From a virus (Duplodnaviria; Heunggongvirae; Uroviricota; Caudoviricetes), in the IMG/VR virus record IMGVR_UViG_3300027798_000013: a stretch of DNA of 64,000 nt; one strand, written 5' to 3'. The position numbers and the translations under genes are program-made. Under the pieces are notes generated by a model, which saw nothing but the letters and a program-made list of their open reading frames with translations, did not search any database and was not told where the DNA came from. Shown piece by piece: positions 15,752-52,233 of this stretch. The stretch's first letter is position 1; each line of letters begins with the position of its first letter.

Positions 15752-16747
15752 GTTTGTTAATTCAGGAAATTTTGTCTTAGTTAAATGTGTTTCTGGAATA
15801 CAGGTACAACACTCCATCTGGCACTTTGATTGTTTAAATTCCGGATTGAATATATCGATAAAGTTATTGTCTAAAATATTATATCTTTGATCAAATAGTG
15901 GCTGTCCACACGATCCTTGTATTACTCCGTCCCAGCTTACATAGATAGAATCCAAACCAATATTACAGTCCCAACCTTTAAAATTAGTCCATCCGCGGTT
16001 AACATACGTATTGGGTGTGGCCAGCACTGGAAGAAATTTATCTTCTAACCAGACAATACTTTCAAATATTTTCATAGACCCGTCAAAAATTAAATTATAA
16101 TTTTTTAAAAACCATGCTGGGTTTGGTAATCTTTTTAATTCCTTGGACATATAAGTCTTTTGTACTGTAGTATATGGAAGATATCCCACAACTTCTTTAG
16201 CTAGTATAAACCAAGGATATTTGCTGTGTGCTTTCATATACTCGATAGCATCAACACACGAGTCCCATATAGTTGGATCCATTAATACTAATATTGTTAC
16301 TTTTTTATTTAAAGAATACAGTATATCAGCAACGTCAATCATGTGGTCGATATCACCTTCTTTGACATGATGTGACAATGTTGCATTATCAATTAAGTGA
16401 CCATTTTCTTTCCACCAACGCAAAGTTCTTGATCCGTTTGATGTAACACTTACGTAGACATCGTTTGATTTTTTTATTTCTAAAATAACTTTATCTAAGT
16501 CTTTCCATAATGTTGGCTCTCCGCCGCCTATATCTAGATGAAATTTAGTTTTTCCTAATTTAGTATACTGATTAAACAAATGTCGAAAATTAGAAATTAC
16601 CATACTGGTATCAGTTGGTACTTTAAAGTTGCCTTCATTTGATCCAGGAAAACAATAATCACACTTGAAATTGCATACGTTACTGGGACTCCATCTTATG
16701 TTTAAAATATTAGTCTTGGCAAGAGATTTTATTTTAATCGGGTTCAT
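15746..16747 (-). CDS. radical SAM enzyme, short SPASM/twitch-like type
   Basis: CNFKCDYCFP. C-terminal CNIGLDS...CGQP...CQMECCTC. Confidence 0.8.
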   Translation of the reverse strand: MNPIKIKSLAKTNILNIRWSPSNVCNFKCDYCFPGSNEGNFKVPTDTSMVISNFRHLFNQYTKLGKTKFHLDIGGGEPTLWKDLDKVILEIKKSNDVYVSVTSNGSRTLRWWKENGHLIDNATLSHHVKEGDIDHMIDVADILYSLNKKVTILVLMDPTIWDSCVDAIEYMKAHSKYPWFILAKEVVGYLPYTTVQKTYMSKELKRLPNPAWFLKNYNLIFDGSMKIFESIVWLEDKFLPVLATPNTYVNRGWTNFKGWDCNIGLDSIYVSWDGVIQGSCGQPLFDQRYNILDNNFIDIFNPEFKQSKCQMECCTCIPETHLTKTKFPELTNL

Positions 16748-18129: not shown

Positions 18130-18967
18130 TTTCTAAATACCTCAATAAAGGGCTTACACCAACTGGACAATTATCTCGCATAGCAATATGTATAGCCGGA
18201 GTAGGAGTCAAGTTGAAATCCTGGCATATCTTAAAATAGTTATCCCCGTGTGTGTTCCACAAGTAATCTGATTTGAAATTTGATAAGAAATGATTTGCTA
18301 TCATGACCGGTGCTCGAAGTAACATGTGAAAATCATTCATTATGCTAATGCTGTCTGGCTGTGTGTGTTTTGTCCATCGTAGCCCTACACGATTCCATCC
18401 TAGGCCCAGTCCTTTACTCAAGCTAATACCTACACTGCGGATTGATGGATGAGATAAATCAAAGTTGATTCCGCGACAGCAAGTAAGCCAAGCGCCATCC
18501 ACATGTACACCGATTCCCTTGTCTTGCGCTTCATCTAATACTTCCTCCATATTGATATGTACTGCGCCAGTGCTAGGAAACGGCATGGCAATTACTAGTG
18601 GTATATTTTCTCGTAACAGTCCTGGTCTAGTTCCCTGGTTACCTAGCCTATCGTGATATCTGTAATCATCAACAAGCACTTGTGGCTGGCATTGCATATA
18701 GATATTGTCAATGTATTGCGTACATCCTTGCATAATATCTATTCTGTCAAAAGTATCCAGTCCGGCTATATTATTAAGTGTACTGTTCTCTAACCAGTTA
18801 GACATGATTTCTTTAAAATCAACATAGACATTGTCCGATATATCTTTGTCCAGGGTTCCATCCAGCACTTCTTGTATAGTTTCTTCTATCAAGTTGTCAC
18901 TAAGAGGTTGCGGGCGTTCAGTTTCTAACCAGCGATCGGAATAGTTGGTTGCTATTTTAATTCTCAT
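18119..18967 (-). CDS. putative PLP-dependent (fold-type I aminotransferase-like) enzyme
   Basis: GVHVDGAW...SLSKGLG resembles the Asp/Lys PLP-binding region. Weak call. Confidence 0.4.
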   Translation of the reverse strand: MRIKIATNYSDRWLETERPQPLSDNLIEETIQEVLDGTLDKDISDNVYVDFKEIMSNWLENSTLNNIAGLDTFDRIDIMQGCTQYIDNIYMQCQPQVLVDDYRYHDRLGNQGTRPGLLRENIPLVIAMPFPSTGAVHINMEEVLDEAQDKGIGVHVDGAWLTCCRGINFDLSHPSIRSVGISLSKGLGLGWNRVGLRWTKHTQPDSISIMNDFHMLLRAPVMIANHFLSNFKSDYLWNTHGDNYFKICQDFNLTPTPAIHIAMRDNCPVGVSPLLRYLENAG

Positions 18968-20033
18968 GTACTACCTGATCTCTTGATTTTCCAAAATCAT
19001 TTATTGGTGCGCGACCACACATCCTGGCACAGGTTATTAAACTGCGTTTGTCCCAGTACTCGTACCACAAGTGTTGATAGCTATCGGACTCTATGATATC
19101 TTTTACGCCAAGTGCTACAGCGTTCAAATTGCCAATGCCGCCAAACGCTTCAACTATATCATGATATTGTGATAACATTTCATATCGCACTTCAGCGGCA
19201 TCATTTTTATCTATAAAGGTATACGGCGCACTTGCTATCCAACAACATGGAAATACATTCTTAAATGCATCTATATATACTGCTCGCTGATTTAGTGCTT
19301 GACAATCAATAACCGATTCGGATACTATTTGCTTGTAAGCATTAATAGCATTCTTGTCGATAAACTTTAAGGGAGTATCGGATGCTGGCTCGATTATATG
19401 TGTGACATTTCCATTCTTATCTAATACATCTACTTTAGGCTCGAGTAGGAAACGAGAACTGTTTTTCATAACAAAACTGGCAAAACCTAGATCCTTGCTC
19501 ATCTGCCTAGCTTTTTCTACTTGATCTTGGTTGTGTTTGAATCTGATAAAACACCATTCAGCAGTTCCGCCGGCGGCAATAAATGCCTTGGCATTTTCTA
19601 TTATATTTTCAAAACTTGTTCCAATACGGTAGACGTTGTGTGTATCACTAAGTCCATCTAACGCAAATACTACTGTGTGGATTTTTGGTAATGCTTTGGC
19701 CAAGTCACTCCACCAGCTGGTAGTTCTAGCACTGCCGTTAGTGTGTATACGCACATTGAGATTGGGATTGGTTTCTGTAGAATATCTACACATGTCGATC
19801 AGTTGTTTGTTCAATATAGGATCTCCAAAATTCCCACAAAAGAAAAAACCGTTTATTTGATTAAGTACTTCGGGAGTCATAATAGTTTTGAAATCTTCCA
19901 AAGACCAATCATTTAATTTTATTAAAGGATTCTCCAAGCCGCCACTACGATTGCGCGAACACATGGGACAACTGGCTTGGCAGTTGTTGGTAATCTCTAA
20001 ATGTACATCTAATAACTCGTTAAAGTGAAACAT
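18957..20033 (-). CDS. radical SAM enzyme
   Basis: CQASCPMCSR at the N-terminus, IHTNGS, FALDGLSDTHNVYR. C-terminal Cys-rich segment. Confidence 0.75.
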   Translation of the reverse strand: MFHFNELLDVHLEITNNCQASCPMCSRNRSGGLENPLIKLNDWSLEDFKTIMTPEVLNQINGFFFCGNFGDPILNKQLIDMCRYSTETNPNLNVRIHTNGSARTTSWWSDLAKALPKIHTVVFALDGLSDTHNVYRIGTSFENIIENAKAFIAAGGTAEWCFIRFKHNQDQVEKARQMSKDLGFASFVMKNSSRFLLEPKVDVLDKNGNVTHIIEPASDTPLKFIDKNAINAYKQIVSESVIDCQALNQRAVYIDAFKNVFPCCWIASAPYTFIDKNDAAEVRYEMLSQYHDIVEAFGGIGNLNAVALGVKDIIESDSYQHLWYEYWDKRSLITCARMCGRAPINDFGKSRDQVVHEN

Positions 20034-29009: not shown

Positions 29010-29431
29010 AAATCGGACTAAGTTATAGCCGTTGCATTTTGGACATTGTTGAAGGTCGTGTGGACATTGACGATGTACTAGTGCTGATCACTCGTACAGA
29101 TTTTGATCCTCGAGATGATGCTCAATGGTCGGGTATTTGGGAAGGCTATTGCCTAGGAGGCATGAGTAATCCAGAGTGGGGTCGCTACGACTTCCACAGT
29201 AAAGACGACGAGGACAAGTTCCGTAGCGTGAGCAGTATGCTATATGAAGATGGCAAAATGCATCAACCTCGACAATTCGGCGCTAATCCAAGACGCAGAC
29301 CAGAAATTTGGTTGGAAGCAGTTTTGCCAAATACAGAGCTTGCCAAAAATCCAGCCGCCCAAATGGCTTGGGACAAGTTTCAAACCATTGCTGGTTTGAC
29401 TAATGTGGAATTAGACGACAAGTACCGTTGA
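29006..29431 (+). CDS. hypothetical protein
   Basis: ORF track; ATGA coupling. Confidence 0.5.
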   Translation: MKIGLSYSRCILDIVEGRVDIDDVLVLITRTDFDPRDDAQWSGIWEGYCLGGMSNPEWGRYDFHSKDDEDKFRSVSSMLYEDGKMHQPRQFGANPRRRPEIWLEAVLPNTELAKNPAAQMAWDKFQTIAGLTNVELDDKYR

Positions 29432-29462
29432 CACGCGGCACCTTTGGTGCTATACTAACAAC

Positions 29463-29735
29463 ATGAAACATTTGCTTATCCTATCTGCGTTGGTACTTAC
29501 TGGCTGTAACAATGCGGCCAGTGGTCCCGCTCCTGTAAAAATGTTGACCTACCAAGAGTTAGTTGACTTTGAACCCAAGTGCGAACTGGCAAGTACACAA
29601 CAACCCATGTTGAAGAAGATTTTGGAAAGAAAGAATTTCGATCCAGAACCAGATAATCTCAAAGAAGAAGATAGGATTTACAATAGTCGTTTGAAAGCAA
29701 CACTTTGGTGGTATGAATATAGGTGCAAACAATGA
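29463..29735 (+). CDS. small lipoprotein
   Basis: MKHLLILSALVLTGC lipobox signal peptide. Confidence 0.5.
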   Translation: MKHLLILSALVLTGCNNAASGPAPVKMLTYQELVDFEPKCELASTQQPMLKKILERKNFDPEPDNLKEEDRIYNSRLKATLWWYEYRCKQ

Positions 29736-30085
29736 AAATATATATTTTGATTTTGGCATTGATAAGTGGTTCAGCTTGGGCTGGTTGCCAAAGCCGTGTG
29801 AGTACTGCTGTCAAAGGCGACGAAGTTGTCAGCACCAACACACTTACTGTTTGTGGTGAAGGACTTGGCGTACTGGAAAAGAAAGTTCGAATTGGACAAG
29901 TTATTTTGGAAACAGAAGTAGAAGATGTTCCCGAACTCAATATTACTTACTTCAAACACAGTCATTCCAAATGCCGTATGTTTAGAGAACGCTATGTATT
30001 CAATAATATCCTACAGGTCAATCACGGAGTGATTTGTCAAAAGGATGCCAAATTGGACATGTGGACAGTGGTGGACAAATGGTAA
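29732..30085 (+). CDS. secreted protein or lipoprotein
   Basis: MKIYILILALISGSAWAGC signal; ATGA coupling. Confidence 0.5.
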   Translation: MKIYILILALISGSAWAGCQSRVSTAVKGDEVVSTNTLTVCGEGLGVLEKKVRIGQVILETEVEDVPELNITYFKHSHSKCRMFRERYVFNNILQVNHGVICQKDAKLDMWTVVDKW

Positions 30086-30158
30086 AATCAATTGTTGACA
30101 ACGCACTACTAGTACGCTATAATACTAACATGCACAACACACACAGAAAGGCATTTAT

Positions 30159-30287
30159 ATGAAGGCATTCATCGCAGGCACAGTTTTTGGACTAGTTCTA
30201 GCCACTGTCGGATTCTCCGGCATTGCTCGAATGTTGGACAAAGGTGTAGACACAGTTAAAACACAAAGCACGGAGTTGGCAAAATGA
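30159..30287 (+). CDS. small single-TM peptide (42 aa), not in the ORF track
   Basis: MKAFIAGTVFGLVLATVGFSGIARML... Confidence 0.35.
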   Translation: MKAFIAGTVFGLVLATVGFSGIARMLDKGVDTVKTQSTELAK

Positions 30288-30409
30288 AAATTATCCTAGC
30301 ACTTATTTTGGTTATTAACTTAGCCGCATGTTCAACTGTATCAGGAATCGGCAAAGACATTTCGTCTGGTGCTGAATGGTCCAAAGAAAAAATAGGAAAA
30401 GCACTATGA
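30284..30409 (+). CDS. entericidin-like small lipoprotein (41 aa), not in the ORF track
   Basis: MKIILALILVINLAACSTVSGIGKDISSGAEW resembles entericidin A/B (lipobox followed by G-x-G-x-D-I). ATGA coupled on both sides. Confidence 0.55.
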   Translation: MKIILALILVINLAACSTVSGIGKDISSGAEWSKEKIGKAL

Positions 30410-30981
30410 AAAAAACTCTATTGTTAATCCCCGTGGTTGCCATGTTGGCGGCTTGTGGCACAACTGATGTGTATCAACGCCGTGCTGACAATGAACGTCA
30501 ATATCAAGAAGAAGCCATTGACAGGGCACTCAAGAAGCGTCCAGAGTGGATGACCAAATTGCCCGTTAGTAACAGTGCAATTTTTGCCGCCGCTGAAGGT
30601 TCAGCTGACAGCTATAACATGGCTATCCATATGGCACGTACCAATGCTCTGACAGACCTGTGCTACAGTGCAGATGGCAGAGTCAGTAGCCAAACTAAAC
30701 AGTTTGAAACAGGTAGCTCAAAGTCCAGCAGTATTGAAAAAGTAACACGTACAAATTGTAACAGTGTTGACGTGACTGGCTATGAAACTTATGGTGCCAA
30801 AGACGTGGGTGAGAATCCTTTGGTAATTCGCACTGGTAGCAAGTTCACTGCCTATGTATTGGTGGCATTGCCTACTGGCGATGCCAATGTGCAACGCAAA
30901 TACAAAGACGGACTCAAGCGTGATGAACGTGAACAAGTTCGTGCTACTGAAGCGTTCAAAGAACTACCTAAGGTGCAATAA
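30406..30981 (+). CDS. lipoprotein
   Basis: MKKTLLLIPVVAMLAACG lipobox. The start is moved to the ATG that overlaps the entericidin-like stop. Confidence 0.55.
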   Translation: MKKTLLLIPVVAMLAACGTTDVYQRRADNERQYQEEAIDRALKKRPEWMTKLPVSNSAIFAAAEGSADSYNMAIHMARTNALTDLCYSADGRVSSQTKQFETGSSKSSSIEKVTRTNCNSVDVTGYETYGAKDVGENPLVIRTGSKFTAYVLVALPTGDANVQRKYKDGLKRDEREQVRATEAFKELPKVQ

Positions 30982-31424
30982 TGATTAAAGAATTTATGAA
31001 TATTATAGAATCAATGGAAGGCATCACTGATGCTTGGTTTAAAAATGGTAGCTTTGAAACTTATAAAAAGCCTGCCAAAGAACGTTATGAAATTGCGGAT
31101 GAACCAGGTACCATTGAAACACTAGAAGGCCCAGTTAAGTATCCTGCTGGATACTATATCATGACTGGACCAAAAGGTGAACAGTATCCAATTACTCCGG
31201 AAAAGTTTCGTGATCTCAAAGACGATTTAGGTGACGGAGTTTGTACGCCTAAAAAAATCATGAAGATTGCTAAACTTGCAGATCATTCTGGATCAGTTGA
31301 CACAAGCTGGGGTGAGAAGCTACATTACAATCCTAGCGAAGATGTTATTGTTCGTCACGGTGAAAATGATTATGGTGTTGTAAAGAAAGACATCTTTGCT
31401 CAAACTTACGAGATGCCAAAATGA
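30981..31424 (+). CDS. hypothetical protein
   Basis: ORF track. Confidence 0.5.
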   Translation: MIKEFMNIIESMEGITDAWFKNGSFETYKKPAKERYEIADEPGTIETLEGPVKYPAGYYIMTGPKGEQYPITPEKFRDLKDDLGDGVCTPKKIMKIAKLADHSGSVDTSWGEKLHYNPSEDVIVRHGENDYGVVKKDIFAQTYEMPK

Positions 31425-31597
31425 TCCGTCTTTGGTTAGCATTTGCCATACTTGCTGTCTTGATACATTTGGGCATTACTGCCTGGAGAAAGATAGAAAG
31501 AAAGGAGCGATGGTCATTGACTAAGTCCGTTGCGTATAGTATACTTGTCTCGTTGCTGGCTGTTCTAGCAATGACAGTAATTGTAATTTTATTCTAA
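31421..31597 (+). CDS. small two-TM membrane protein (58 aa), not in the ORF track
   Basis: MIRLWLAFAILAVLIHLGITAW...SILVSLLAVLAMTVIVILF; ATGA coupling. Confidence 0.4.
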   Translation: MIRLWLAFAILAVLIHLGITAWRKIERKERWSLTKSVAYSILVSLLAVLAMTVIVILF

Positions 31598-31606
31598 GGA
31601 AACATA

Positions 31607-32407
31607 ATGAAACGTATTTTGACTCTTTCTGTTCTTGCCGCGGCTGTGCTGGCAACAGGTTGTACTCGTATCGAAACTGGTGAAGTTGGTGTGCGAGTTG
31701 GTTTTGATAAACAGGTGCAAAGTGGTGAACTACTTCCCGGTTCTTTTAATCAAAGTATTATTGGTGAAGTACTCACATTCCCTATCAAGGATGTGAACGT
31801 GGTACTGGAGAATATGACCCCAGTGGCCAAAGACAACTCAACCATGAAAGACTTTGATGCTGTGGTTGTCTACAACATCAACCCTGGCCAGGTATCTGAA
31901 CTGTATGCAACCAAGAACAGGAGCTTCCATGCTGAGTTCAAAGGTGATACCTATGTGATGTACAACTACATTGTGCAGAATGCTCGTAACGCTATCTACA
32001 AGGCCGCTCGCAAGTACGAGGCCCTGGACATGGCAGATGCTCGTAGCGACATGGAAACCTTTATCAAGGAAGAAATTGTTCGCAATCTTGCCGAGGAAAA
32101 GTTGGACGGTAGTATCACTATTAGTCAAGTGCTAATCCGTAATATTGTACCAGCTGACTCAGTGGTAGCAAGTGCTAACGAATTGGTCAAGGCCAAGAAC
32201 GAGTTCAAGACTGAAGAAGTCAAAGTGGCCACTGCTCGCAAGCGTAATGAATCGATGCAAGCCAACCCAATGGCAATTCCTTTGTTGCGAGCTGAAGCTG
32301 AAGCTGAAGCTATGCGCAAGTTGCCAGATGCTATTGCCAACTTCAAAGGTCAGACCTTGGTCATTAACGGAGTAGTAACACCTACTGTACAAACTAACGG
32401 AAAATAA
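31607..32407 (+). CDS. SPFH/band-7 domain lipoprotein (prohibitin/HflK-like)
   Basis: Lipobox LATGC followed by IETGEVGVRVGF..., the SPFH N-terminal signature. Confidence 0.65.
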   Translation: MKRILTLSVLAAAVLATGCTRIETGEVGVRVGFDKQVQSGELLPGSFNQSIIGEVLTFPIKDVNVVLENMTPVAKDNSTMKDFDAVVVYNINPGQVSELYATKNRSFHAEFKGDTYVMYNYIVQNARNAIYKAARKYEALDMADARSDMETFIKEEIVRNLAEEKLDGSITISQVLIRNIVPADSVVASANELVKAKNEFKTEEVKVATARKRNESMQANPMAIPLLRAEAEAEAMRKLPDAIANFKGQTLVINGVVTPTVQTNGK

Positions 32408-32417
32408 GGAGAAGATT

Positions 32418-33113
32418 ATGTTTGGTGCAAATTATACAAATGGCGGTATTTTAAATTATCGCTCAGCAGAAGAAATTAATTCGGCCATGGGTCGAGTTTA
32501 CGGACACATGAGTCTGGCAGTTGTTGTATCCATGCTGATCAGTTACTTTGTGGGCACTAGCCCAGAGTTGATACAATTCTTTTTTACAGGTGTACTAAAG
32601 TGGATTGTGATCTTTGCTCCACTGGCGGCCATTTTTGGTGTCAGCTACGTGCTAGGCAACAATCCCAGCAAAGGTGTAGCTCAGTTATGTTTGCATGGTT
32701 TTGCGGCACTTATGGGCTTGAGCTTTAGCATGATATTTGCTGTGTTCAACATGGGTAGTATTGTGTCAGCATTTATGGGTGCGGCAATCCTGTTTGGTGT
32801 AATGAGTGGCTACGGTTACTTTACCAAAAAGGATCTAAGTGGCATGGGACAAATGATGTTTGTGGGATTGATTGCTATTGTGATTGCCAGCATTGTTAAT
32901 ATCTTTATTGGCTCAACTGTCATGCAAATGGTTATCTCGGCATTGGCTATCATTATCTTTTTGGGACTCACTGCTTATGACACACAACGAATCCGTGAAG
33001 AAGTCAGTGTTGACACTAGCCCAGCCGTGGAAGTAACAGGTGCATTATCTTTGTACATGAACTTTATCAACTTGTTCCTAAACTTGTTACAACTGTTTGG
33101 CGAAAGAAAATAA
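32418..33113 (+). CDS. BI-1/YccA family multi-TM membrane protein
   Basis: About seven hydrophobic segments with the YccA-like layout; N-terminus YRSAEEINSAMGRVYGHMSLAV. Confidence 0.65.
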   Translation: MFGANYTNGGILNYRSAEEINSAMGRVYGHMSLAVVVSMLISYFVGTSPELIQFFFTGVLKWIVIFAPLAAIFGVSYVLGNNPSKGVAQLCLHGFAALMGLSFSMIFAVFNMGSIVSAFMGAAILFGVMSGYGYFTKKDLSGMGQMMFVGLIAIVIASIVNIFIGSTVMQMVISALAIIIFLGLTAYDTQRIREEVSVDTSPAVEVTGALSLYMNFINLFLNLLQLFGERK

Positions 33114-33114
33114 A

Positions 33115-33255
33115 ATGGAAGATCAACGCTGTTGCGGTGGCGGCAATTGTATCATCAACGATGAAGGCGAGTGTTGGTGCGGACAGCGTTGGGATGGTAC
33201 AAAGATGTGCTTTCCCGTTTTAGAAACTGAAAAGAAAGAGGACGATGATGTTTGA
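33115..33255 (+). CDS. small Cys-rich peptide (46 aa), not in the ORF track
   Basis: MEDQRCCGGGNCIINDEGECWCGQRWDGTKMCFPVLE... with 6 Cys. Coding status uncertain. Confidence 0.25.
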   Translation: MEDQRCCGGGNCIINDEGECWCGQRWDGTKMCFPVLETEKKEDDDV

Positions 33256-33505
33256 TTGGTTCAAAAAAGCCGGCTACAAGAATGTAGTACCAATGTTTCC
33301 TGATCAGGTCCCGTTTGATGACGAACCTACAGTACCAAAGAAAGAGTCCAAGACTTATTACACGTTTGGTGTTACAGATGACAATCGTTTGGCATTCACA
33401 ATGGGTTACACCACACTCACCATGAATCGTCCAGGCATACAGAATTTGATTGACCAACTTGAGCTTTTTAAGAATCAACTGCATGAGGAAGATAAAGATG
33501 TTTAG
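33245..33505 (+). CDS. hypothetical protein
   Basis: ORF track. Confidence 0.4.
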   Translation: MMFDWFKKAGYKNVVPMFPDQVPFDDEPTVPKKESKTYYTFGVTDDNRLAFTMGYTTLTMNRPGIQNLIDQLELFKNQLHEEDKDV

Positions 33506-33878
33506 TGTACTCAAATTCATTTGGCTGATAAGCCGTTCCTCGTGGGACATCATGAACCCCAATCTAAATCCCTTACGCCATGCACCTGTGTATGTCAAAT
33601 ACTTTCTCAGCATCCTGCTGGGATGTTTTTGGAGTCTGGCATTTGGTCTTTACATCGGCGAATTGCTCACTATTGGTTACAACATGTTGGGTCATATTGC
33701 CATCATCAGCATGGTGTTTGCCACCTGGGGTGTGTTTCGTTCAGTGGAAAACACCTATAAGCCACGCACAGGTGTGAACTGGTTACGAGCTCCAGATCAC
33801 TCCAGTCGTTGTGATGAGTTGACTGAAGATCAGCGGCTGGCCGGTGTGACTCGCGCTGATCAAATGCTGAGCCGTTGA
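33498..33878 (+). CDS. membrane protein
   Basis: Hydrophobic segments. The start is moved to the ATG that overlaps the previous stop. Confidence 0.4.
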   Translation: MFSVLKFIWLISRSSWDIMNPNLNPLRHAPVYVKYFLSILLGCFWSLAFGLYIGELLTIGYNMLGHIAIISMVFATWGVFRSVENTYKPRTGVNWLRAPDHSSRCDELTEDQRLAGVTRADQMLSR

Positions 33879-33973
33879 AGAATGAATTTCTTTTGGGGAT
33901 TCTTATTAGGATATATTGTGGGTGTGCTATACATGGCATATCGTTCTAACATAGATTCAAGGACAACTACAGA

Positions 33974-34396
33974 ATGAAATTCTTCGAACCTTTGCGTGAT
34001 GACCTAATGGTACAGCAACAGATCGCCAATAGTTGGGAACACATGGTAGGAGTCATCATGCTGAACCAAACCAGTCGCAAGCCGGTCAAGCTGACCTTGC
34101 CCGAATTCCTTTATTGGTTTCCTACTCCACATGCACTGATAGATGCTGAAGAAGATTTTGTCAAAAGCATATTAGCTCCTTTGGGTATGGCCAATGTCAG
34201 ATACAATCGATTGATCGGTATGAGTAAAGACTACTTGACCTGGAACGGCGAAGATGCTACAATACTATATGGTATTGGAAAATATGGTAGCGACAGTTAC
34301 GAAATATTTTTCAAACAGAATTATTCTGTAGAACCTACAGACAAAGAATTAAAACGATATTTAGAAGAGGAAATATATGACACAACTAGTACCTAA
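33974..34396 (+). CDS. HhH-GPD-like (endonuclease III superfamily) base-excision repair protein, short
   Basis: MLNQTSRKPV...LFE..PTP..L..AEE...I..LG followed by LYGIGKYGSDSYEIF, which parallels the EndoIII helix-hairpin-helix. Confidence 0.4.
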   Translation: MKFFEPLRDDLMVQQQIANSWEHMVGVIMLNQTSRKPVKLTLPEFLYWFPTPHALIDAEEDFVKSILAPLGMANVRYNRLIGMSKDYLTWNGEDATILYGIGKYGSDSYEIFFKQNYSVEPTDKELKRYLEEEIYDTTST

Positions 34397-34904
34397 TGTA
34401 ACATTCGCATTTCGCGAAGGCGACGAATCACCAGAGGGTGGTGGTTGCCCAATCGGTGGCAAATTTGTTTTCAAAACAACAGATGATTTGTTTGCCAACA
34501 AGCGAGTGGTAGTATTCAGCTTGCCCGGCGCATTTACACCCACATGCTCAACATATCAACTGCCAGATTTTGAAGAACAATACGAAGACTTTAGAGCACA
34601 AGGTATCGATGACATTTATTGTGTCAGCGTAAATGATGCTTTTGTAATGAACGAGTGGGCACGTAGTTTGAACATTCAAAATGTACATCCAATTCCCGAC
34701 GGTGGTTTCAATTTTACACGAGGCATGGGCATGTTGGTTGATATGAGTCACATTGGCTTTGGATGGCGCAGTCGTCGCTATGCGGCTGTAATTGATAATG
34801 GACAAGTACAACACATGTTCATCGAACCAGAAGCCAGCGACACTGATCCAGATCCGTATGGTGTATCGAGCCCAGAAAATGTTATGAAATACCTTAAAGG
34901 ATAA
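34377..34904 (+). CDS. peroxiredoxin (Prx5/redoxin-like)
   Basis: [15 protein letters not shown] peroxidatic-Cys motif in a redoxin context. Confidence 0.75.
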
Positions 34905-34906
34905 AA

Positions 34907-35527
34907 ATGCCTAATCTAGTACCAATGGTAATTGAAAGTGAGCCGAAAGGCGAAAGAGCTTATGACATTTACAGTCGTTTGCTCAAGGACCGTGTGATCA
35001 TGTTGGACACGGATGTCAACGAGCATACGTCCAGTTTGTTAGTGGCACAGTTGCTCTTTTTAGAGAGTCAAGGAAACGAAGACATTAACCTGTTTATCAA
35101 TAGCCCTGGTGGGTCCGTTACTGCTGGCCTTGCTATTTACGATACCATGCAGTTTATCCGACCAGACGTCGCCACTTACGTTATGGGACAAGCCTGTAGT
35201 ATGGGCTCATTCCTTGCTCAAGCCGGCGCACCTGGAAAGCGGTTTGTTCTGCCCGAAGCCCGTACAATGATCCATCGTGTGAGTTCTGGTACTCCTGGAA
35301 CCCGTGGTACAGTACACGTACAGGAATTGGAATTTGAGGACGCAAAACGTAGTTTTGAAGAATCTAAGCGTATTAACGAACGCCTAACTGAACTGTATGT
35401 CAAGCACAATACCGCTGGAAAAACGTATAGTCAGCTGTACGAAGCTATGAAGTTTGACACGTTTTTGAGTGCCAAAGAAGCAGTGGAATACGGGTTGGCT
35501 GACAAAGTCATTGAAAAGCGTCCGTAA
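34907..35527 (+). CDS. clpP: ATP-dependent Clp protease proteolytic subunit ClpP
   Basis: Similar along the full length to ClpP: [35 protein letters not shown] (active-site Ser), MIHRVSSG. Confidence 0.85.
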
Positions 35528-35555
35528 TTATTAGTTCGGGGTCACTGACTCCAAA

Positions 35556-36467
35556 CTATTTTATTTCAACAACCCCTTTGAGTTCAACACTGTCTACTAG
35601 ACTCATAAGGGCGTTGAGTCCGCCGCTTTGCCACGATTCGACAGGTCCACAAAACACAGCTTTAAGATAATGCATGCCTGGGGTGCCAGTGGGTTGTTTG
35701 AATGCTACCAACTGCGTGGTTTCGGCGACTAGTATGTTAGAACTAAACATGCTACCTTTGTATTTTTCCGCATTGCCTATACAATTCCCAAACTTGTTAC
35801 TTGAATCAAATCTTTTTGATCCTAGGAATTTGTAACCCAACGGTTCCCAATCTTCTCGAGTATCACCCCTGCCTCCCAACGATGAAGTATCAACCCAGTG
35901 TTTTAGCGGTGCATCATATTCATTTATAGAAAGAGTAGCACCGTTGTAATCGTAAGTGTTGAGTACACTTATTCGTTGTCCAAGGAATTTGGATCTTATT
36001 GACATGGCTTTCTCAATTTGTGCGGAATATTTTCCGCCAGGAGAAAGATTAGAATTTACAGAAAATATAGAGGAAGCATAAGGTTTATAGCCGCCGTCAA
36101 TGACTCCTTTTTCATCGTTATCTTCCGCACCTCGTTGTGGTTGGACTTTCATACCTCCCGGCGGAGGCACTATAGCTTGCCCTGATTTGGTAACATATCC
36201 TGTAGAGTTGTCTGAATCTTGTTCAGATGATTTATCCGAGCCAGGCTCATCAAAAATATCACCTATATTACTGCCTATTTGTCCCAAGCGATCGCCTGCA
36301 CGTTTGCCAAAAATTCCGCCAATAGTTGATCCAATTTTGCGGCCAATCTCGCCTTCTATCATAGGATTACTAACCACACGACCAGTGCGGAGATCCAGTC
36401 CTCGAATCAGCTGGCCGCCACGGTCAATATGTTCTAAATGGTCTATCAGTTTTCTTAAATCATTCAT
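35556..36467 (-). CDS. hypothetical protein with a Gly-rich N-terminal repeat region
   Basis: GEIGRKIGSTIGGIFGKRAGDRLGQIGSNIGDIF repeats. The only minus-strand gene in this block. Confidence 0.5.
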   Translation of the reverse strand: MNDLRKLIDHLEHIDRGGQLIRGLDLRTGRVVSNPMIEGEIGRKIGSTIGGIFGKRAGDRLGQIGSNIGDIFDEPGSDKSSEQDSDNSTGYVTKSGQAIVPPPGGMKVQPQRGAEDNDEKGVIDGGYKPYASSIFSVNSNLSPGGKYSAQIEKAMSIRSKFLGQRISVLNTYDYNGATLSINEYDAPLKHWVDTSSLGGRGDTREDWEPLGYKFLGSKRFDSSNKFGNCIGNAEKYKGSMFSSNILVAETTQLVAFKQPTGTPGMHYLKAVFCGPVESWQSGGLNALMSLVDSVELKGVVEIK

Positions 36468-39071: not shown

Positions 39072-39908
39072 ATGAGATCGCATTATTGGACTATTGGAAA
39101 ATTTTCAGACTGGCTTCGCGGCACACCCAAGCTCAAGTGTGGCACTAGCGAAGAATGGGATGCCTGGTATAAGACTGCTGAAAAAGCACATCCTATCCGT
39201 TACTGGATTGCCGAAGAAGGTCTAGACCACCTTCAAAAATTTGTTTACTACATACCGGACAAGCTAAATGACATACGCTATTATATTAACAATCGCTGGG
39301 TTACTCACAGCCATGCTCTTACCGCCCATCCTCGAGACATACAGCCGGGCAACTGGAGTGATGTGGGCAATCGCTTTCTTCCTTGTCTTTTCAATGAGCT
39401 TGTTAATTTTGTTGAAATAGAACAAGCGTGGCATCACTGCTTGTGGAGTGATGAAGCCAAGACCCAATTCAATGTGCCTTGGTACCGCACTGGTTGGCTA
39501 CGACTACGTACATGGCGCAGTCCAGAAGCCGGCATGGAATATTTGAAATGGGCCAGTGAACTCACTGTTGGCGAGGACATGGGTGCTGAACCTGGTAGCG
39601 AAGGATTTGGGGAACCGACCTGGCAAGCCAAAAGTGCTAAGGAAATTATTGAGCTTTACACTTGGTGGACTGTGACCTATCGCGCTCGTCCAGACCCGCA
39701 TAACGCCAGTGGCTGGAGTGCGTACTGTGAAGCAAGCCGTATTGCCAACGGCGGCAAACTAAGTTGGAGTAGTGACAAGAGCCCTGAACTCAAAGCCATG
39801 AGCGATGCCGCACACAAAAAGCTACAAGAAATCGAAGTGGCTTACGAAGCAGAAGATGAAGCCATGATGATTCGTCTTATCAAAATACGTCAAAGTCTTT
39901 GGACCTAA
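39072..39908 (+). CDS. hypothetical protein
   Basis: ORF track. Confidence 0.5.
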   Translation: MRSHYWTIGKFSDWLRGTPKLKCGTSEEWDAWYKTAEKAHPIRYWIAEEGLDHLQKFVYYIPDKLNDIRYYINNRWVTHSHALTAHPRDIQPGNWSDVGNRFLPCLFNELVNFVEIEQAWHHCLWSDEAKTQFNVPWYRTGWLRLRTWRSPEAGMEYLKWASELTVGEDMGAEPGSEGFGEPTWQAKSAKEIIELYTWWTVTYRARPDPHNASGWSAYCEASRIANGGKLSWSSDKSPELKAMSDAAHKKLQEIEVAYEAEDEAMMIRLIKIRQSLWT

Positions 39909-41308
39909 TGAAGGGCGATGAAGTAACTAACGTAAACGGCCGCTTTGAATCACATTACTTAAATGATTCGGAGTCGGTCTTTTCTGCCCTTAACAAAGTC
40001 AGCCCTAGTTTCTGTCTTGCCAAGTGGTACAATGTCAGCATACACATACCCACAGGTCGCACACACAGTTGTTATCATCCGCCCACACATCAAATTCCTC
40101 TGAAGGAAATTGCTATTGATGTATCAGCACTACACAATACCAAATATAAAAAGAATCAGCGTAAACTCATGCTGAAAGGTGAGCGGCCGATCGAGTGCGG
40201 ATTTTGCTGGCAAATTGAAGACAGCGGCACACAACTAAGTGACAGAGCTTATCGTAGCAAGGATGTGTATGAGCCTGGCTTGATAGAAGAAGCGCAGTTG
40301 GTAGAGAATCCTAATCCACGTTATGTGGAAGTAAACTTTAATCAAGCCTGTAACTTGAAATGTAGTTATTGCTCTCCGCACCTAAGCACAGAGTGGAACA
40401 AGGAAATAGACCGACACGGGCCTTACTTGTTAGCAGACAATAAAACACACAACGACACACAATGGATGCGGAATCAAAACATGGTTCCCAACAACAGTTT
40501 AGACAATCCATACTTGTTAGCTTTTTGGGAATGGTTACCACAGATATATCCCACACTACACACCTTCCGCATGACTGGCGGCGAACCTTTGATGGACAAG
40601 AATACATTCCGTATGTTTGATTACGTTAAAGAACACCCAAGCGAGCGGTTACATCTAAGCATCACATCAAACTGTTGTCCACCTAAAGGACAATGGACTA
40701 AGTTCATGACCAGCTTGAAAGAGATTACAGATACGGATGCTGTTAATCACTTTATGTTGTTCTGTAGTTTAGACTCGTGGGGTGCTCAAGCAGAGTATAT
40801 TCGTAATGGTTTAGACTTCTGTACCCTATATACTAACATAACTGACTACTTGAAGAACAGTAGCAAACACAGTCTTACCTTTATTATCACATTCAATGCC
40901 CTGAGCTATACTGGCTTTGTTAAGTACATTGAGAACATACATAAATTAAGACAAGAATACAACACAGATAGACAGCTGATCTGGTTTGACATTCCTATGC
41001 TGAATGACCCTATGTGGATGAATCCCAAACTGCTACCTAACATGGTGTCTGAATTAGAACGTGCTATAGATTTTATGAAGGCAAATGAAGAAGGCGAACA
41101 CAATCGCTTTAAGGGTTTTAAAGATTTTGAAATCAGCAAAGTACAACGCCTGATTGACTGGGTAAAGAGTGACAGCAAGTTTGACAGAGCCACAGCAATG
41201 AAGAACTTTTATCTATTCTTTAGCCAGCATGATGAACGCAGGGGAACAAGTTTTTTAAATACATTCCCCGAACTAACAGACTTTTGGAACACTTGTGAAA
41301 AGACCTAA
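39899..41308 (+). CDS. radical SAM enzyme, tandem paralog 1 of 4
   Basis: CNLKCSYCSP core. N-terminus SPSFCLAKWYN...SCYHPPTH...ECGFCWQIED. Confidence 0.8.
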   Translation: MDLMKGDEVTNVNGRFESHYLNDSESVFSALNKVSPSFCLAKWYNVSIHIPTGRTHSCYHPPTHQIPLKEIAIDVSALHNTKYKKNQRKLMLKGERPIECGFCWQIEDSGTQLSDRAYRSKDVYEPGLIEEAQLVENPNPRYVEVNFNQACNLKCSYCSPHLSTEWNKEIDRHGPYLLADNKTHNDTQWMRNQNMVPNNSLDNPYLLAFWEWLPQIYPTLHTFRMTGGEPLMDKNTFRMFDYVKEHPSERLHLSITSNCCPPKGQWTKFMTSLKEITDTDAVNHFMLFCSLDSWGAQAEYIRNGLDFCTLYTNITDYLKNSSKHSLTFIITFNALSYTGFVKYIENIHKLRQEYNTDRQLIWFDIPMLNDPMWMNPKLLPNMVSELERAIDFMKANEEGEHNRFKGFKDFEISKVQRLIDWVKSDSKFDRATAMKNFYLFFSQHDERRGTSFLNTFPELTDFWNTCEKT

Positions 41309-42644
41309 CGAAACCGATTTAGAATATAAAAAACGTGTACTGGATGCTATTAGCCCCAGCTTCTGCGGAGCCAAGTGGTACAATGCCACTATCTGGCTTG
41401 GATCAGGGCAAACAACAAGTTGTCATCATCCGCCTGCACATAAAGCAGACATACAAATAGTTAAATTTAATCCCAAGGCAATTCATAACACTCCCCAGAA
41501 GAAAGAAGATCGCCGTAAGATGTTGGCTGGAGAACGTCCTTCAGGGTGTGAGTACTGCTGGAAGATTGAAGATATGGGTGTGGACGCTGTAAGTGACAGA
41601 CCTTACAAGAGTATGACATACACCGAAGAAGCATTGCTGGAAGCAACAAGAACTCCAGTGGACCAGGATGTGGATTTGCAAACACTTGAAATAGCATTTG
41701 ACCGTACTTGTCAGTTTGCTTGTAGTTATTGTAACCCAGCGTTCAGTACAACATGGGTTAAAGATATTAAGAAGAACGGTCCTTATGTTAATCTAGTCAC
41801 AGATGGTCGTGGACATTTTACTCATGTACACGAAAACGATCAGTTGTTTGACTTTCATGAAGAGAATCCGTATATTGAAGCATTTTTTAAATGGTGGGAA
41901 AGTGACCTACACCGCACACTGAAAGAGTTACGCATCACAGGTGGCGAGCCCTTGATGAGTGGGCACACTTGGAAGTTGTTTGATTGGTTTAAAGCAAACA
42001 AAAATAAGAGTACATGTCAGCTAGCCATTAATAGTAATTTGGGATTCGGGCAAGATGTAGTACAACGTATGCTAGACAGTACTGACGGTGTTAAGATGAT
42101 GCTGTATACCAGCAATGAAAGTGTAGGGCCACATGCTGAATACATTCGTGACGGATTGGAATGGAGTCAATGGATCAGTAATATGGAATTCTTGCTTAAA
42201 GCAGAACGTATGCGTCTAAGTGTTATGATGACTATTAACGCATTATGCTTGGAAAGTTTGCCTGAGATGTTGGATCAAGTAATGGCTTGGAAGAAGACGT
42301 ATGGACAATGGCACATTAACTTTAGTCTTAACATACTGCGTTTTCCAAGTTTCCAAAGTGCATTAACTTTGCCGGATCACGTTAGACAAGAATATAATAA
42401 ACGTCTTGCTGAGTGGTATGAACTTAATCGTGGCAATCCGGATTTGAATAACTTTGAAAAGAGTAATATTGAACGTTTGATAGATTACTTAGACATTGTT
42501 AAAACTCCACACGGTGAGGGTTATGTACAAGCCACAGCACAAAAAGATTTCAAACAATTTTACGAACAATATGATGTTCGTAGAGGAAAAGATTTCCGTA
42601 AAACATTTAGCCCCATGCTTGTAGAATGGTATGAATCTATTTAA
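41295..42644 (+). CDS. radical SAM enzyme, tandem paralog 2 of 4
   Basis: CQFACSYCNP. N-terminus SPSFCGAKWYN...SCHHPPAH...CEYCWKIED. Confidence 0.8.
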   Translation: MKRPNETDLEYKKRVLDAISPSFCGAKWYNATIWLGSGQTTSCHHPPAHKADIQIVKFNPKAIHNTPQKKEDRRKMLAGERPSGCEYCWKIEDMGVDAVSDRPYKSMTYTEEALLEATRTPVDQDVDLQTLEIAFDRTCQFACSYCNPAFSTTWVKDIKKNGPYVNLVTDGRGHFTHVHENDQLFDFHEENPYIEAFFKWWESDLHRTLKELRITGGEPLMSGHTWKLFDWFKANKNKSTCQLAINSNLGFGQDVVQRMLDSTDGVKMMLYTSNESVGPHAEYIRDGLEWSQWISNMEFLLKAERMRLSVMMTINALCLESLPEMLDQVMAWKKTYGQWHINFSLNILRFPSFQSALTLPDHVRQEYNKRLAEWYELNRGNPDLNNFEKSNIERLIDYLDIVKTPHGEGYVQATAQKDFKQFYEQYDVRRGKDFRKTFSPMLVEWYESI

Positions 42645-43950
42645 TTGGTTTAAACCCAAGGATCCTGCAAAGAAATATTTTTACTTTAAAGAAGAAAAAA
42701 TGGATCCTGTTAGCCCTACATTTTGTGGGGCTAAATGGTTTGAAAGTACTATATGGCTGTATCAGGGAACTACTGCCAGTTGTCATCATAACCCGTTCCA
42801 TAAGATACAGTTGGATCAAAACGATCCTGGCTCTTTACATAACACTCCTGTCAAATTAAAAGAACGTATAGACATGTTGGCAGGCGGCAAGCCAACCAAT
42901 TGTAGTTATTGCTGGAATGCGGAAGCTAATGGAACACTGAGTGATCGTGTGATAAAAACTAACAGCGTACCTACAAAAATATTTAAACGTTGGTTTCAAA
43001 GTAAACCGCTGGTTGTTACTCCTACACTTTTAGAAATTGCTTTTGAACGTACTTGTAATTTGGCCTGTGCATATTGTGGGCCAAGTTTTAGTAGCAAATG
43101 GGCAAGTGATATAAAGAAGCGCGGTCCGTATGTAAACTTGATAACAGACAGTCGTTACAACACCGACTCTGGTAATGATGTTATAGATAACGATCATAAT
43201 CCATACACTGAATCATTTTTTAAATGGTGGCCTCTCATAGAACGTGATTTGAACTGTTTACGCATCACAGGTGGTGAGCCGTTAATGAGTCCAAATTTTT
43301 GGCGCTGTTTGGATATGTTTAAAAAATTCAAAGGCACATTAATAGTCAACACTAATTTGATTTGCTACAAGGATGAACTTCAGTCTCTACTGAACAAAAC
43401 CCGTAAGGTAGAATTACGCATACACACCAGTATGGAAAGCAATCTAGACCAAGCTGAATATGTTAGGGATGGTTTTGATAAAACAGTATGGTTAGCCAAC
43501 GTACATTTTATATTACATCATAGACGTGTTATGCTAAATGTCACCACTGCCATTAATAATATGGCTGTTTGGAGTTTTATCGATTATCTGAAACTCATGC
43601 GTGAGTTAAAGACTAAGTACGGAAAGAAGCGTGTGGAGATCAATTGTAACTTTGTACATTACCCTGCGTTTATGCGTGTACAAATGATTCCCGCCGCACA
43701 GCGTAGGATACTAGCCGATGAAGTCAATAATTGGTTCGTGTTGAATAAAAAACTGCTTAACGATAAAGAACAACAGCACATATTGCGATTCATAAGTACT
43801 ATGGATGCAGGCTGGATTGATCAAGATTACGAAATTAAAGATGCGTACAATGATTTGAAGAACTTCATTGTGCAATATGACACCCGTAGAGGAAAGAATT
43901 TTAGACATGCCTTGGATAAAAGATTTGTTGAGTGGTACGATGGACTCTAA
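42631..43950 (+). CDS. radical SAM enzyme, tandem paralog 3 of 4
   Basis: CNLACAYCGP. N-terminus SPTFCGAKWFE...SCHHNPFH...CSYCWNAEA. The start may instead be the ATG at 42700. Confidence 0.8.
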   Translation: MNLFNWFKPKDPAKKYFYFKEEKMDPVSPTFCGAKWFESTIWLYQGTTASCHHNPFHKIQLDQNDPGSLHNTPVKLKERIDMLAGGKPTNCSYCWNAEANGTLSDRVIKTNSVPTKIFKRWFQSKPLVVTPTLLEIAFERTCNLACAYCGPSFSSKWASDIKKRGPYVNLITDSRYNTDSGNDVIDNDHNPYTESFFKWWPLIERDLNCLRITGGEPLMSPNFWRCLDMFKKFKGTLIVNTNLICYKDELQSLLNKTRKVELRIHTSMESNLDQAEYVRDGFDKTVWLANVHFILHHRRVMLNVTTAINNMAVWSFIDYLKLMRELKTKYGKKRVEINCNFVHYPAFMRVQMIPAAQRRILADEVNNWFVLNKKLLNDKEQQHILRFISTMDAGWIDQDYEIKDAYNDLKNFIVQYDTRRGKNFRHALDKRFVEWYDGL

Positions 43951-45136
43951 CTGGTACTGTAAATTACCCTGGACTGGATTCAGTAATGACCCAGACGGCA
44001 AAGCACGGCCCTGTTGCCTGTACAAGGATCACATCAAAGACGATGCTGGTCAGATAATGTATGTGCAAACCAGCTCAGTCAAGGAGATATTCTCCAGCAA
44101 ATACATGAAGGATTTACGACAGCAGTTTCGTGACGGTGCCAAACCCAGTGCTTGCGAAACTTGTATTGTTGACGAACAGAACAACTACACAAGCAAGCGT
44201 CAACGTCACATTGAAGGTGATTTTTATTTTTTACCGGACTATACTAAAGAGCCAGAATTCCCAGTAGAGTATCAAATGATACTGAGCAATGCCTGTAACT
44301 TGAAATGTCGTAGCTGTACGCCGAGTCATAGCAGTTTGTGGCAAGCTGAACACAAAGTTATCTGGGGTAATACTGGTTACAAAATGCCCGAAGGACAGAG
44401 TGGCGAAAACGACAGCGTGTTATGGAACAAGCGTAGTGAGTGGATGCCCAGTGTTGCTAGATTAGAAATTGTAGGCGGTGAGCCTTTTTACATTAATCGT
44501 TGGAAGATACTGTGGCAGGAGTTTATTGAACAAGACTTGGCTAAGAATATCAACATGGATATTAGTACTAACTGCACTATCTATGCTGGAGATACAGTTG
44601 CAGATCTAGTAGAGAATTTTAGACACATTGGGCTCGGGCTTAGTGTTGACGGCATGGGCAAAGTATACAATTACTTAAGACATCCTGGCGAATGGGAAGA
44701 AGTCAAGGCCAATATGTTTGCCTATAACGACATGATTAAAACTATCAATCGCAGAAAAATAGGACCAAGCGTTAGCCATACTATTGGTTGGATCAATGCT
44801 TGGGAGTTACCAGAATTTCATACGTTTGTCAAAGATGAACTAGATGAATTTAAAATATGGAATAACATTATTCACTATCCGCCGCATATGGCAGTGTATA
44901 TGATTCCTGCCACACTTAAAGATCGTATTAAGGCCAAGTGGGCTACCTACGATTGGGGCAGATATAAAAACGACATCGCAGGCATTGTTAGTTTGATGTA
45001 TAGTCAACAGCCCAGTGATGATGAAATCAAACAAGCCTACAAAACATTCAAACAACACGATACTGTGCGTAATGAAAACTTGTTGGATATTTTGCCGGAA
45101 GAGATTGTGGAAGAGATCAGACCTTACTATGAATAG
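43940..45136 (+). CDS. radical SAM enzyme, tandem paralog 4 of 4 (large type)
   Basis: CNLKCRSCTP. N-terminus YCKLPW...PCCLY...ACETCIVDE. The track start lies 72 nt upstream inside the previous gene. Confidence 0.8.
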   Translation: MDSNWYCKLPWTGFSNDPDGKARPCCLYKDHIKDDAGQIMYVQTSSVKEIFSSKYMKDLRQQFRDGAKPSACETCIVDEQNNYTSKRQRHIEGDFYFLPDYTKEPEFPVEYQMILSNACNLKCRSCTPSHSSLWQAEHKVIWGNTGYKMPEGQSGENDSVLWNKRSEWMPSVARLEIVGGEPFYINRWKILWQEFIEQDLAKNINMDISTNCTIYAGDTVADLVENFRHIGLGLSVDGMGKVYNYLRHPGEWEEVKANMFAYNDMIKTINRRKIGPSVSHTIGWINAWELPEFHTFVKDELDEFKIWNNIIHYPPHMAVYMIPATLKDRIKAKWATYDWGRYKNDIAGIVSLMYSQQPSDDEIKQAYKTFKQHDTVRNENLLDILPEEIVEEIRPYYE

Positions 45137-52228: not shown

Positions 52229-52233
52229 TAAAA

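Follow-up and report, generated by a model that had tools for sequence, protein, structure and literature searches.

The 29.4- to 34-kb interval of the viral sequence IMGVR_UViG_3300027798_000013 is a mosaic of three separable cassettes in a fast-shuffling accessory region, and one of these cassettes, a gene for a small membrane hairpin followed by a gene for an SPFH lipoprotein, is the only strictly co-inherited pair in the region. The sequence, which we conclude derives from an uncultivated large (jumbo-class) phage, was analyzed as a window of 64 kb (i.e., the whole stretch of DNA), with approximately 40% G+C and short, densely packed open reading frames (ORFs). The ORFs of the interval, designated A to M here, are all encoded on the + strand. 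The three cassettes consist of ORFs C, D, and E (a micro-protein and two lipoproteins), ORFs G and H (the hairpin and the SPFH lipoprotein), and ORF I (a BI-1/TMBIM-family membrane protein). The interval is enriched in envelope-targeted proteins: membrane or exported proteins account for 7 of 11 ORFs of a greedy set in this interval versus 6 of 67 elsewhere (Fisher P = 1.6e-4). The original prediction for this DNA had treated these genes as one membrane module, and the strictly conserved hairpin-SPFH pair is the key structure that it missed.

Linkage was counted in 160 related loci of approximately 12 kb each, 80 of which were centered on H and 80 on BI-1. ORF H (positions 31607 to 32407) encodes a 266-amino-acid (aa) SPFH/band-7 lipoprotein with the lipobox ATGC and its lipidated cysteine at residue 19 (Cys19). 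ORF G (31421 to 31597), immediately upstream, encodes a 58-aa hairpin of two transmembrane (TM) segments with a basic loop, RKIERKERWSLTK, and the C-terminal pattern ..V(I/V)LF. A hairpin upstream of H was detected by tblastn in 78 of the 80 H-centered loci, and a diverged 58-aa hairpin was recognized by inspection in locus L054. Locus L011 carries no upstream DNA, which reduces the denominator to 79, and the hairpin lies directly upstream of H in all 79 informative loci. The gap between the two genes is 8 to 14 nt in 61 loci. The G family contains 459 proteins, with a length of 58 aa in every listed match, and all of them lack both a name and a Pfam domain. The basic loop of the family follows the pattern RK..GKERW.LTK, and the C-terminal V(I/V)LF is nearly invariant. 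Pfam searches with G yielded only subthreshold matches at E values of >0.04, none of which was to NfeD. A 28-aa micro-ORF with one TM segment, MINDRYLRPLYFALGFAVCFFLFSQGII, was observed between G and H in 15 related loci (including L004 to L006, L023, and L024; e.g., at about positions 5905 to 6000 of L004), and the window is without it.

ORFs C, D, and E co-occur in approximately 10 of the 80 H-centered loci. The BI-1 gene (ORF I; 32418 to 33113), which encodes a polytopic membrane protein of 231 aa, adjoins H in 4 of the same 80 loci and is found approximately 3 kb downstream in approximately 10. In the BI-1-centered set, 11 of 80 loci have H within 5 kb, 46 of 80 have no other gene of the window nearby, and the commonest neighbor is a ClpP gene (within 5 kb in 29 of 80). 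A relative with a 97%-identical H has wholly different small genes around the 147-aa ORF (ORF F) and the G-H pair. H and BI-1 are rarely neighbors among the 160 loci, and the proposal that they constitute a single SPFH/YccA functional module is not supported.

That proposal held that H and the YccA-like BI-1 protein act together to regulate the FtsH protease of the host, the role that HflK/C and YccA have in E. coli. E. coli YccA is known to bind FtsH and HflKC, a gap of 10 nt separates the two genes in the window and in loci L001, L011, L014, and L015, and the frequent proximity of ClpP to BI-1 hints at a proteostasis theme. The best NCBIfam match of I is indeed "FtsH protease modulator YccA" (NF007765), but it scored 44.7 bits against a cutoff of 353; I belongs to the BI-1 family and is not a YccA equivalog. 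Nor did H prove to be of the HflK/C type: it is a single gene, it carries a lipobox instead of a TM anchor, no HflK or HflC match was found in NCBIfam (E ≤ 0.1), and hhalign placed it about equally far from E. coli HflK, HflC, and QmcA (38% probability for HflK and 17% for HflC). Given these differences and the linkage counts, we consider a joint FtsH-regulating module quite improbable; H and I could each act on FtsH separately. A module that was read from one genome thus dissolves across 160 loci, which is a check on guilt-by-adjacency.

The layout of the G-H pair recurs in distant phages. Of 6 distant lineages of cultured phages, 5 have a small 2-TM ORF immediately before the SPFH gene, the exception being Acinetobacter phage Ab15, whereas 9 of 934 background genes were preceded by such an ORF. 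The upstream hairpins measure 58 aa in Synechococcus phage BUCT-ZZ01, 53 aa in Synechococcus phage S-CREM1, 72 aa in Kuttervirus SJ3 and SilasIsHot, 64 aa in Erwinia phage phiEa2809 (unannotated), and 83 to 95 aa in Acinetobacter phage Bphi-R2919, and they abut or overlap the start of the SPFH gene. In total, the layout was seen in Kyanoviridae, Ackermannviridae, and Obolenskvirus phages and in some Burkholderiales chromosomes. The public records of Salmonella phage SJ3 (NC_024122; L082, positions 2726 to 2944) and phiEa2809 (L086, positions 1307 to 1501) leave the hairpin ORF unannotated, and the SilasIsHot record names the equivalent ORF gp55. Hairpins of 58 to 60 aa ending in LF also precede H homologs in Roseateles, Parvibium, and a few metagenome-assembled genomes; that of Roseateles aligned with G (hhalign E = 1.8e-4) and was the only one of the hairpins compared with G by hhalign to look homologous. 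E. coli YjeT and YbbJ were tried as homologs of G and rejected, as hhalign gave no signal above reversed-sequence controls. SPFH genes of this kind nearly always have a tiny 2-TM partner, which is often unannotated, and Kuttervirus phages infecting Salmonella and E. coli, which have the same layout, offer a tractable model.

The identification of H as an SPFH lipoprotein, already made in the original prediction, was confirmed by its lipobox, by a Pfam Band_7 match (E = 1.9e-15; model positions 2 to 174 of 176), and by a match to phrog_200, annotated "lipoprotein" (E = 1.9e-31). The SPFH domain begins 2 residues past the lipidated Cys19. Relatives of H number 452 in IMG/VR and 4,523 in the protein database, and an exhaustive phmmer search resolved the subfamily into 281 clusters at 50% identity. 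A lipobox is present in 76 of 90 full-length representatives and is followed almost at once by the motif (T/G/S)-R-(I/V)-E-T-G-x-V-G. H belongs to a compact lipoprotein subfamily of SPFH proteins. A PDB sequence search with H returned nothing relevant. Chromosomal homologs, collected by a genome scan with a five-sequence H alignment, are mostly stand-alone genes; those of Burkholderiales are numerous, with 47 to 57% identity. The closest cellular homologs are stand-alone genes of the predatory bacteria Bdellovibrio and Bacteriovorax (60 to 66% identity; e.g., L091, L092, and L094), a similarity that may bear on host range or on the origin of the gene.

SPFH proteins are annotated in many large phages, with their function explicitly given as unknown (PMC7760394), and they otherwise appear as proteins of unknown function or as minor mass-spectrometry matches with low counts in virion preparations (PMC10892097, PMC7760394, and PMC6034870). 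An SPFH protein of a Pasteurella prophage has been reported in outer-membrane vesicles and as a virulence factor. In the literature on the function of phage SPFH, BI-1, or entericidin proteins, we found only annotations, mass-spectrometry listings, and this Pasteurella protein.

The membership of I in the BI-1 family is supported along its full length. Pfam Bax1-I (PF01027) matched with an E value of 2.8e-54 (184.5 bits versus a threshold of 34.1; model positions 2 to 207 of 207), and the protein aligns full length to Bacillus subtilis YetJ (PDB 4PGR). The di-aspartyl pH sensor of YetJ, whose positions we take to be D171 and D195, is incomplete in I. The Asp of the YDTQ motif is present, and the second Asp is replaced by Asn at residue 215 (codon AAC, positions 33060 to 33062), in the context LYMNFINLF as opposed to the YetJ-type motif LYLDFINLF. 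The second position is Asp in 78 of 80 phage BI-1 relatives; locus L175 also has Asn. The Asn of the window may reflect functional variation or else a sequencing polymorphism. Relatives of I number 473 in IMG/VR, and the cultured-phage records matching BI-1 were restricted to nine weak, dubious, and mostly unannotated fragments, so BI-1 is essentially unreported in isolated phages.

The small ORFs C, D, and G are real genes under purifying selection. Every ORF named in the original prediction was found where it had been placed, and topology signals (i.e., a lipobox or TM segments) were predicted in each named ORF of the membrane module. We collected homologs of each ORF from 80 related IMG/VR loci and calculated ratios of nonsynonymous to synonymous substitution rates (dN/dS). 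Median dN/dS values were 0.30 for C (14 distinct sequences), 0.30 for D (7 distinct sequences), 0.32 for G (57 distinct sequences, each exactly 58 aa long), 0.11 for H (61 distinct sequences), and 0.07 for I (9 distinct sequences). The lipobox Cys is kept in homologs of A, D, E, and H, and public gene callers annotate relatives of the small ORFs. The existence of the small ORFs, which had been predicted from a single genome, is thus borne out by conserved homologs in related phages with dN/dS values of approximately 0.3; neither missing topology signals nor missing conservation was found.

In the first cassette, ORF C (30159 to 30287) encodes a 42-aa micro-protein with one N-terminal TM helix and an amphipathic charged tail (hydrophobic moment, 0.54). 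Its 14 distinct homologs are 42 to 44 aa long, and no family match was found for C. It often precedes a lipoprotein gene; elsewhere, other lipoprotein genes or tiny TM ORFs follow it. ORF D (30284 to 30409) encodes a 41-aa entericidin-like lipoprotein with the lipobox LAAC and Cys16, a feature kept in all 6 distinct homologs. The mature peptide has 26 aa, begins with CSTVSGIGKDISSG, and is moderately amphipathic. ORF E encodes a 191-aa lipoprotein (LAAC, Cys17) that ends at 30981 and likely starts at 30406 (MKKTLLL...LAAC) rather than at 30376. Homologs of E were found in approximately 10 loci and in Methylophilales phage Melnitz. E is possibly LPP20-like, but the hints are weak, with Pfam LPP20 matching at an E value of only 0.025 and in only 2 of 8 relatives. 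A single-sequence AlphaFold2 (AF2) model of E was unusable, with a predicted local distance difference test (pLDDT) score of 38.

D had been described as closely resembling entericidin A/B. Its size, lipobox, mature motif, and hhalign comparison with E. coli EcnA/EcnB (96.4% probability; E = 1.4e-9 over 28 columns, a score that partly reflects the generic signal peptide and lipobox) support the term entericidin-like, but the degree of resemblance was overstated. The match to Pfam Entericidin (PF08085) is 18.6 bits against a gathering threshold of 23.3, that to NCBIfam EcnB is 23.5 bits against a cutoff of 94, and the Pfam matches obtained for 24 of 41 members of the D family are all subthreshold. 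The family has at least 203 members of 38 to 45 aa, which carry the Joint Genome Institute (JGI) label "predicted small secreted protein"; this is presumably the COG name for entericidins. Two new phage gene families, the BI-1/TMBIM proteins (473 loci) and the entericidin-like lipopeptides (at least 203 proteins), are common in one freshwater jumbo-phage lineage, and our literature search found no report of either in phages.

The interval had also been proposed as the place to look for unannotated holin or spanin functions. In a lysis cassette, C or G would act as a holin or antiholin, C would form a spanin-like inner-membrane/outer-membrane pair with D or E, and D would be a bacteriolytic effector of the entericidin type. 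E. coli EcnB is annotated as bacteriolytic, and the layout of i-spanin and o-spanin genes is mimicked here, in that the gene of a TM protein overlaps the lipoprotein gene after it. In phage Melnitz (L238, positions 1863 to 3187), a signal-anchored "cell wall hydrolase" is directly preceded by a C-like 45-aa TM peptide and the E homolog. This arrangement, which may reflect a lysis-associated use of a C/E-type pair, is the one finding that points to lysis. Against this, no endolysin was found among the Pfam-scanned neighbors of 28 to 36 kb (A and B at 29463 to 30085, C to I and L at 30159 to 33113 and 33546 to 33878, J and K at 33097 to 33505, two ORFs at 28602 to 29431, and the stretch from 33974 to 36467, i.e., all lettered ORFs except M), and the window has no homolog of the Melnitz-type cell wall hydrolase or of the signal-arrest-release (SAR)-type hydrolase that some relatives carry. 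The SAR-type hydrolase of the relatives L039 and L041 lies 3 to 4 kb from H and, with a TM protein that follows it, makes up a cassette of its own. Only approximately 20 residues of C lie beyond the TM segment, where an i-spanin would have a long periplasmic coiled coil, and the 26 residues of mature D are likewise too few for a canonical spanin. With regard to holins, C has a single TM segment and no adjacent lysin, and the second TM segment of G runs to the C terminus (..VILF), leaving no charged tail of the kind typical of holins. The promoter upstream of C is also of the host sigma-70 type (see below). With no endolysin, holin, or spanin signature among the scanned ORFs, the search suggested by the original prediction came up empty, and we consider a lysis cassette very unlikely. 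PADLOC defense models had no match among 10 proteins.

The interval resembles an "early-type" operon that is read by the host RNA polymerase and is translationally coupled, with its timing inferred from promoter sequence. A perfect sigma-70 consensus promoter (TTGACA-N17-TATAAT) lies on the + strand at 30095 to 30123, 36 nt upstream of C, and 9 of the 13 distinct related loci keep a promoter-like site, with at least 11 of 12 consensus positions, at 57 to 64 nt before C. A near-consensus site (TTGACA-17-TATACT with TG; 11 of 12 positions) lies at 29428 to 29456 on the + strand, directly upstream of A. Three perfect TTGACA-N17-TATAAT sites occur in the window versus 0.10 expected, which suggests extensive use of the host sigma-70 RNA polymerase. 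These sites, at 30095, 37313, and 46349, are all on the + strand, each shortly before a gene on that strand. C overlaps D, and D overlaps E, by an ATGA; F and G overlap by 4 nt, E and F overlap by 1 nt, and I overlaps J, whereas the G/H and H/I gaps are 9 to 10 nt. H starts 9 nt past G, in the same frame, and is preceded by an AAGGA ribosome-binding site.

We regard an organization as separable envelope cassettes in a promoter-driven jumbo-phage operon as very probable. For their function, we tentatively favor, with somewhat less than even confidence, the reading that the three cassettes condition the host envelope early in infection and that they include a two-part membrane scaffold made of G and H. 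The operon would load the host envelope with small proteins. By the positive-inside rule, the basic loop of G would be cytoplasmic and both of its termini periplasmic. H would be held by its lipid anchor with the SPFH domain flush against the membrane on the periplasmic face and would oligomerize into a ring or cage, as other SPFH proteins do. Through its conserved periplasmic C-terminal LF, G would supply the TM component that HflK/C carry in-chain. BI-1 might serve as a cation-leak channel or an FtsH decoy, and G-H, BI-1, and the lipopeptides would together act on membrane integrity and proteostasis in the early phase of infection and not bring about lysis.

The scaffold mechanism itself is possible but rather doubtful. 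We propose it because SPFH proteins form complexes with partners in the HflK/C-FtsH cage and QmcA-YbbJ, precedents that are cited in PMC13086221 and PMC13220708. By analogy, G-H may be a new type of SPFH-plus-partner operon, in which the partner is a small hairpin. A more far-reaching version, which we hold to be unlikely, is that the hairpin and the SPFH lipoprotein form a previously unrecognized two-component "split HflK/C-like" periplasmic cage that fences inner-membrane complexes during infection. Such a cage would be used by at least four phage families (this jumbo lineage, Kyanoviridae, Ackermannviridae, and Obolenskvirus) and some Burkholderiales, with FtsH or secretion or DNA-entry sites as candidate targets. 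In the freshwater jumbo phages, a phage-borne BI-1 channel and entericidin-like lipopeptides would serve as further envelope effectors.

Several observations weigh against the envelope-conditioning reading and its scaffold component. Under the Lol sorting rules of E. coli, a residue other than Asp directly after the lipidated Cys (position +2) predicts outer-membrane targeting. In the H family, this residue is T, G, or S and never Asp; outer-membrane sorting is therefore predicted for H, which would separate it from the inner-membrane hairpin, and it is chiefly this prediction that makes a G-H complex uncertain. For the Kuttervirus, Erwinia, Acinetobacter, and cyanophage hairpins, the hhalign probabilities against G equaled those of reversed-sequence controls. 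Because homology to G is undetectable in these hairpins, the conservation outside the G family is architectural only. Most bacterial homologs of H (e.g., those of Bdellovibrio, Polaromonas, and Massilia) are without a hairpin, and G is therefore not obligatory for H. The AF2 model of H, built from a shallow multiple sequence alignment of 43 sequences, had a pLDDT of 55 and was unusable. Finally, the host-type promoter is a consensus match and not a measured early transcript.

The same promoter type and the periplasmic or membrane location of the products would also fit superinfection exclusion or receptor masking by the lipoproteins and TM peptides, in the manner of T5 Llp, T1/phi80 Cor, and T4 Imm and Sp. 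Rapid gene turnover, as seen in this region, is typical of conflict loci, and genes labeled "superinfection exclusion" adjoin the hairpin-SPFH pair in Ackermannviridae. However, those neighboring "Sie" labels are unverified annotations, and nothing in the interval resembles Llp, Cor, Imm, or Sp in sequence; the single PDB match to a "lytic conversion lipoprotein" was confined to the signal peptide (E = 0.16). Stand-alone chromosomal orthologs of H in Bdellovibrio and Burkholderiales, together with the cellular BI-1 family, point instead to a physiological membrane role. We therefore judge exclusion to be a rather unlikely explanation of these genes.

The other ORFs of the interval flank or separate the cassettes. 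ORF A (29463 to 29735) encodes a 90-aa predicted lipoprotein (LTGC, Cys15) that flanks the envelope cluster and has homologs in approximately 6 loci (dN/dS, 0.18). ORF B (29732 to 30085) encodes a 117-aa protein with a hydrophobic, signal-like N-terminal segment and has homologs in approximately 7 loci. No Pfam or PHROG family was found for A or B, and searches of PHROGs, NCBIfam, and PADLOC with A, B, C, and G gave nothing meaningful. ORF F (30981 to 31424) encodes a 147-aa soluble protein that is not membrane associated, a passenger between two cassettes; it matches phrog_419 (E = 1.1e-11) and, at 25.1 bits and below the gathering threshold of 27, Pfam PGDYG, and it is missing from the closest relative, L001. 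ORF J (33097 to 33255), which overlaps the end of the BI-1 gene, encodes a Cys-rich protein of 52 aa, CCGGGNCIINDEGECWCGQRWDGTKMC; it is kept in 8 loci (dN/dS, 0.27) and has no family match. ORF K (86 aa) is a further small downstream ORF of the same packed string, in which J to M span 33097 to 33977, and J and K are present in 8 to 14 loci, with dN/dS values of approximately 0.3. ORFs L (33546 to 33878; about 110 aa, 2 TM segments) and M (31 aa, hydrophobic) were found in the closest relatives only.

We assign the element to phages because relatives of H and BI-1 lie on IMG/VR contigs and because both an ATP-dependent DNA ligase and a virion structural protein of the window were matched in PHROGs; further PHROG matches were to an endonuclease and to several radical-SAM proteins. 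The IMG/VR contigs with H relatives reach 383 kb, and the IMG sample numbers are those of samples that we take to be freshwater. No near-identical relative of the region was found by megablast against 50,697 GenBank phage records, exact-protein look-ups of H and P0001 returned no record, and the 64-kb window contains no tRNA genes. A ClpP homolog (34907 to 35527, + strand; Pfam CLP_protease, E = 6.4e-62) lies outside the cassettes as a context gene and is 60% identical to its counterpart in jumbo phage PA5oct. At least seven radical-SAM-like ORFs were observed in the window, three of them consecutive at 39899 to 43950 and the others at 43868 to 45136, 11946 to 13208, 16744 to 18129, and 18957 to 20033. 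A single ORF of at least 3,928 codons, unusually large for a phage, occupies 52216 to 63999 on the + strand and continues past the end of the window; no Pfam family matched it at E values of ≤1e-3.

Among known systems, HflK/HflC-FtsH resembles the pair in having an N-terminally membrane-anchored SPFH domain, predicted to be periplasmic in H, that is followed by a helical, EA-rich C-terminal region. H differs in being a single gene rather than one of two paralogs and in the lipid anchor that replaces the TM helix; its putative TM component is a separate 58-aa protein. SPFH-NfeD operons (QmcA-YbbJ and archaeal stomatin-STOPP) likewise couple an SPFH gene tightly to a small membrane-protein partner, with which it is cotranscribed, and the QmcA-YbbJ complex has been solved, as cited in PMC13220708. 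In contrast to the partners in these operons, G has no NfeD OB-fold (hhalign against YbbJ, 0.1% probability) and lies upstream of the SPFH gene, whereas the NfeD-type partner lies downstream; QmcA faces the cytoplasm, and H is predicted to be exported. D shares with EcnA/EcnB a 40- to 48-aa precursor with a lipobox and the mature motif C-(S/N)-T-x-x-G-x-G-x-D-I. It differs in falling below the Pfam and NCBIfam thresholds, in being phage borne, in being always preceded by the C micro-protein, and in occurring as a single copy flanked by C and E and not as a toxin/antidote tandem. I resembles YetJ and YccA in its full-length Bax1-I match, its alignment to 4PGR, and the YDTQ Asp, but it is phage borne, is not a YccA equivalog, and has Asn at the second sensor position. 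The phages with phrog_200 proteins (Kuttervirus/Vi01-like, Erwinia, Acinetobacter, and Synechococcus phages) share with H both the lipobox and the upstream 2-TM ORF, with H identities of only 23 to 29% to the Ackermannviridae and Acinetobacter proteins, 35% to that of S-CREM1, and 41% to that of BUCT-ZZ01.

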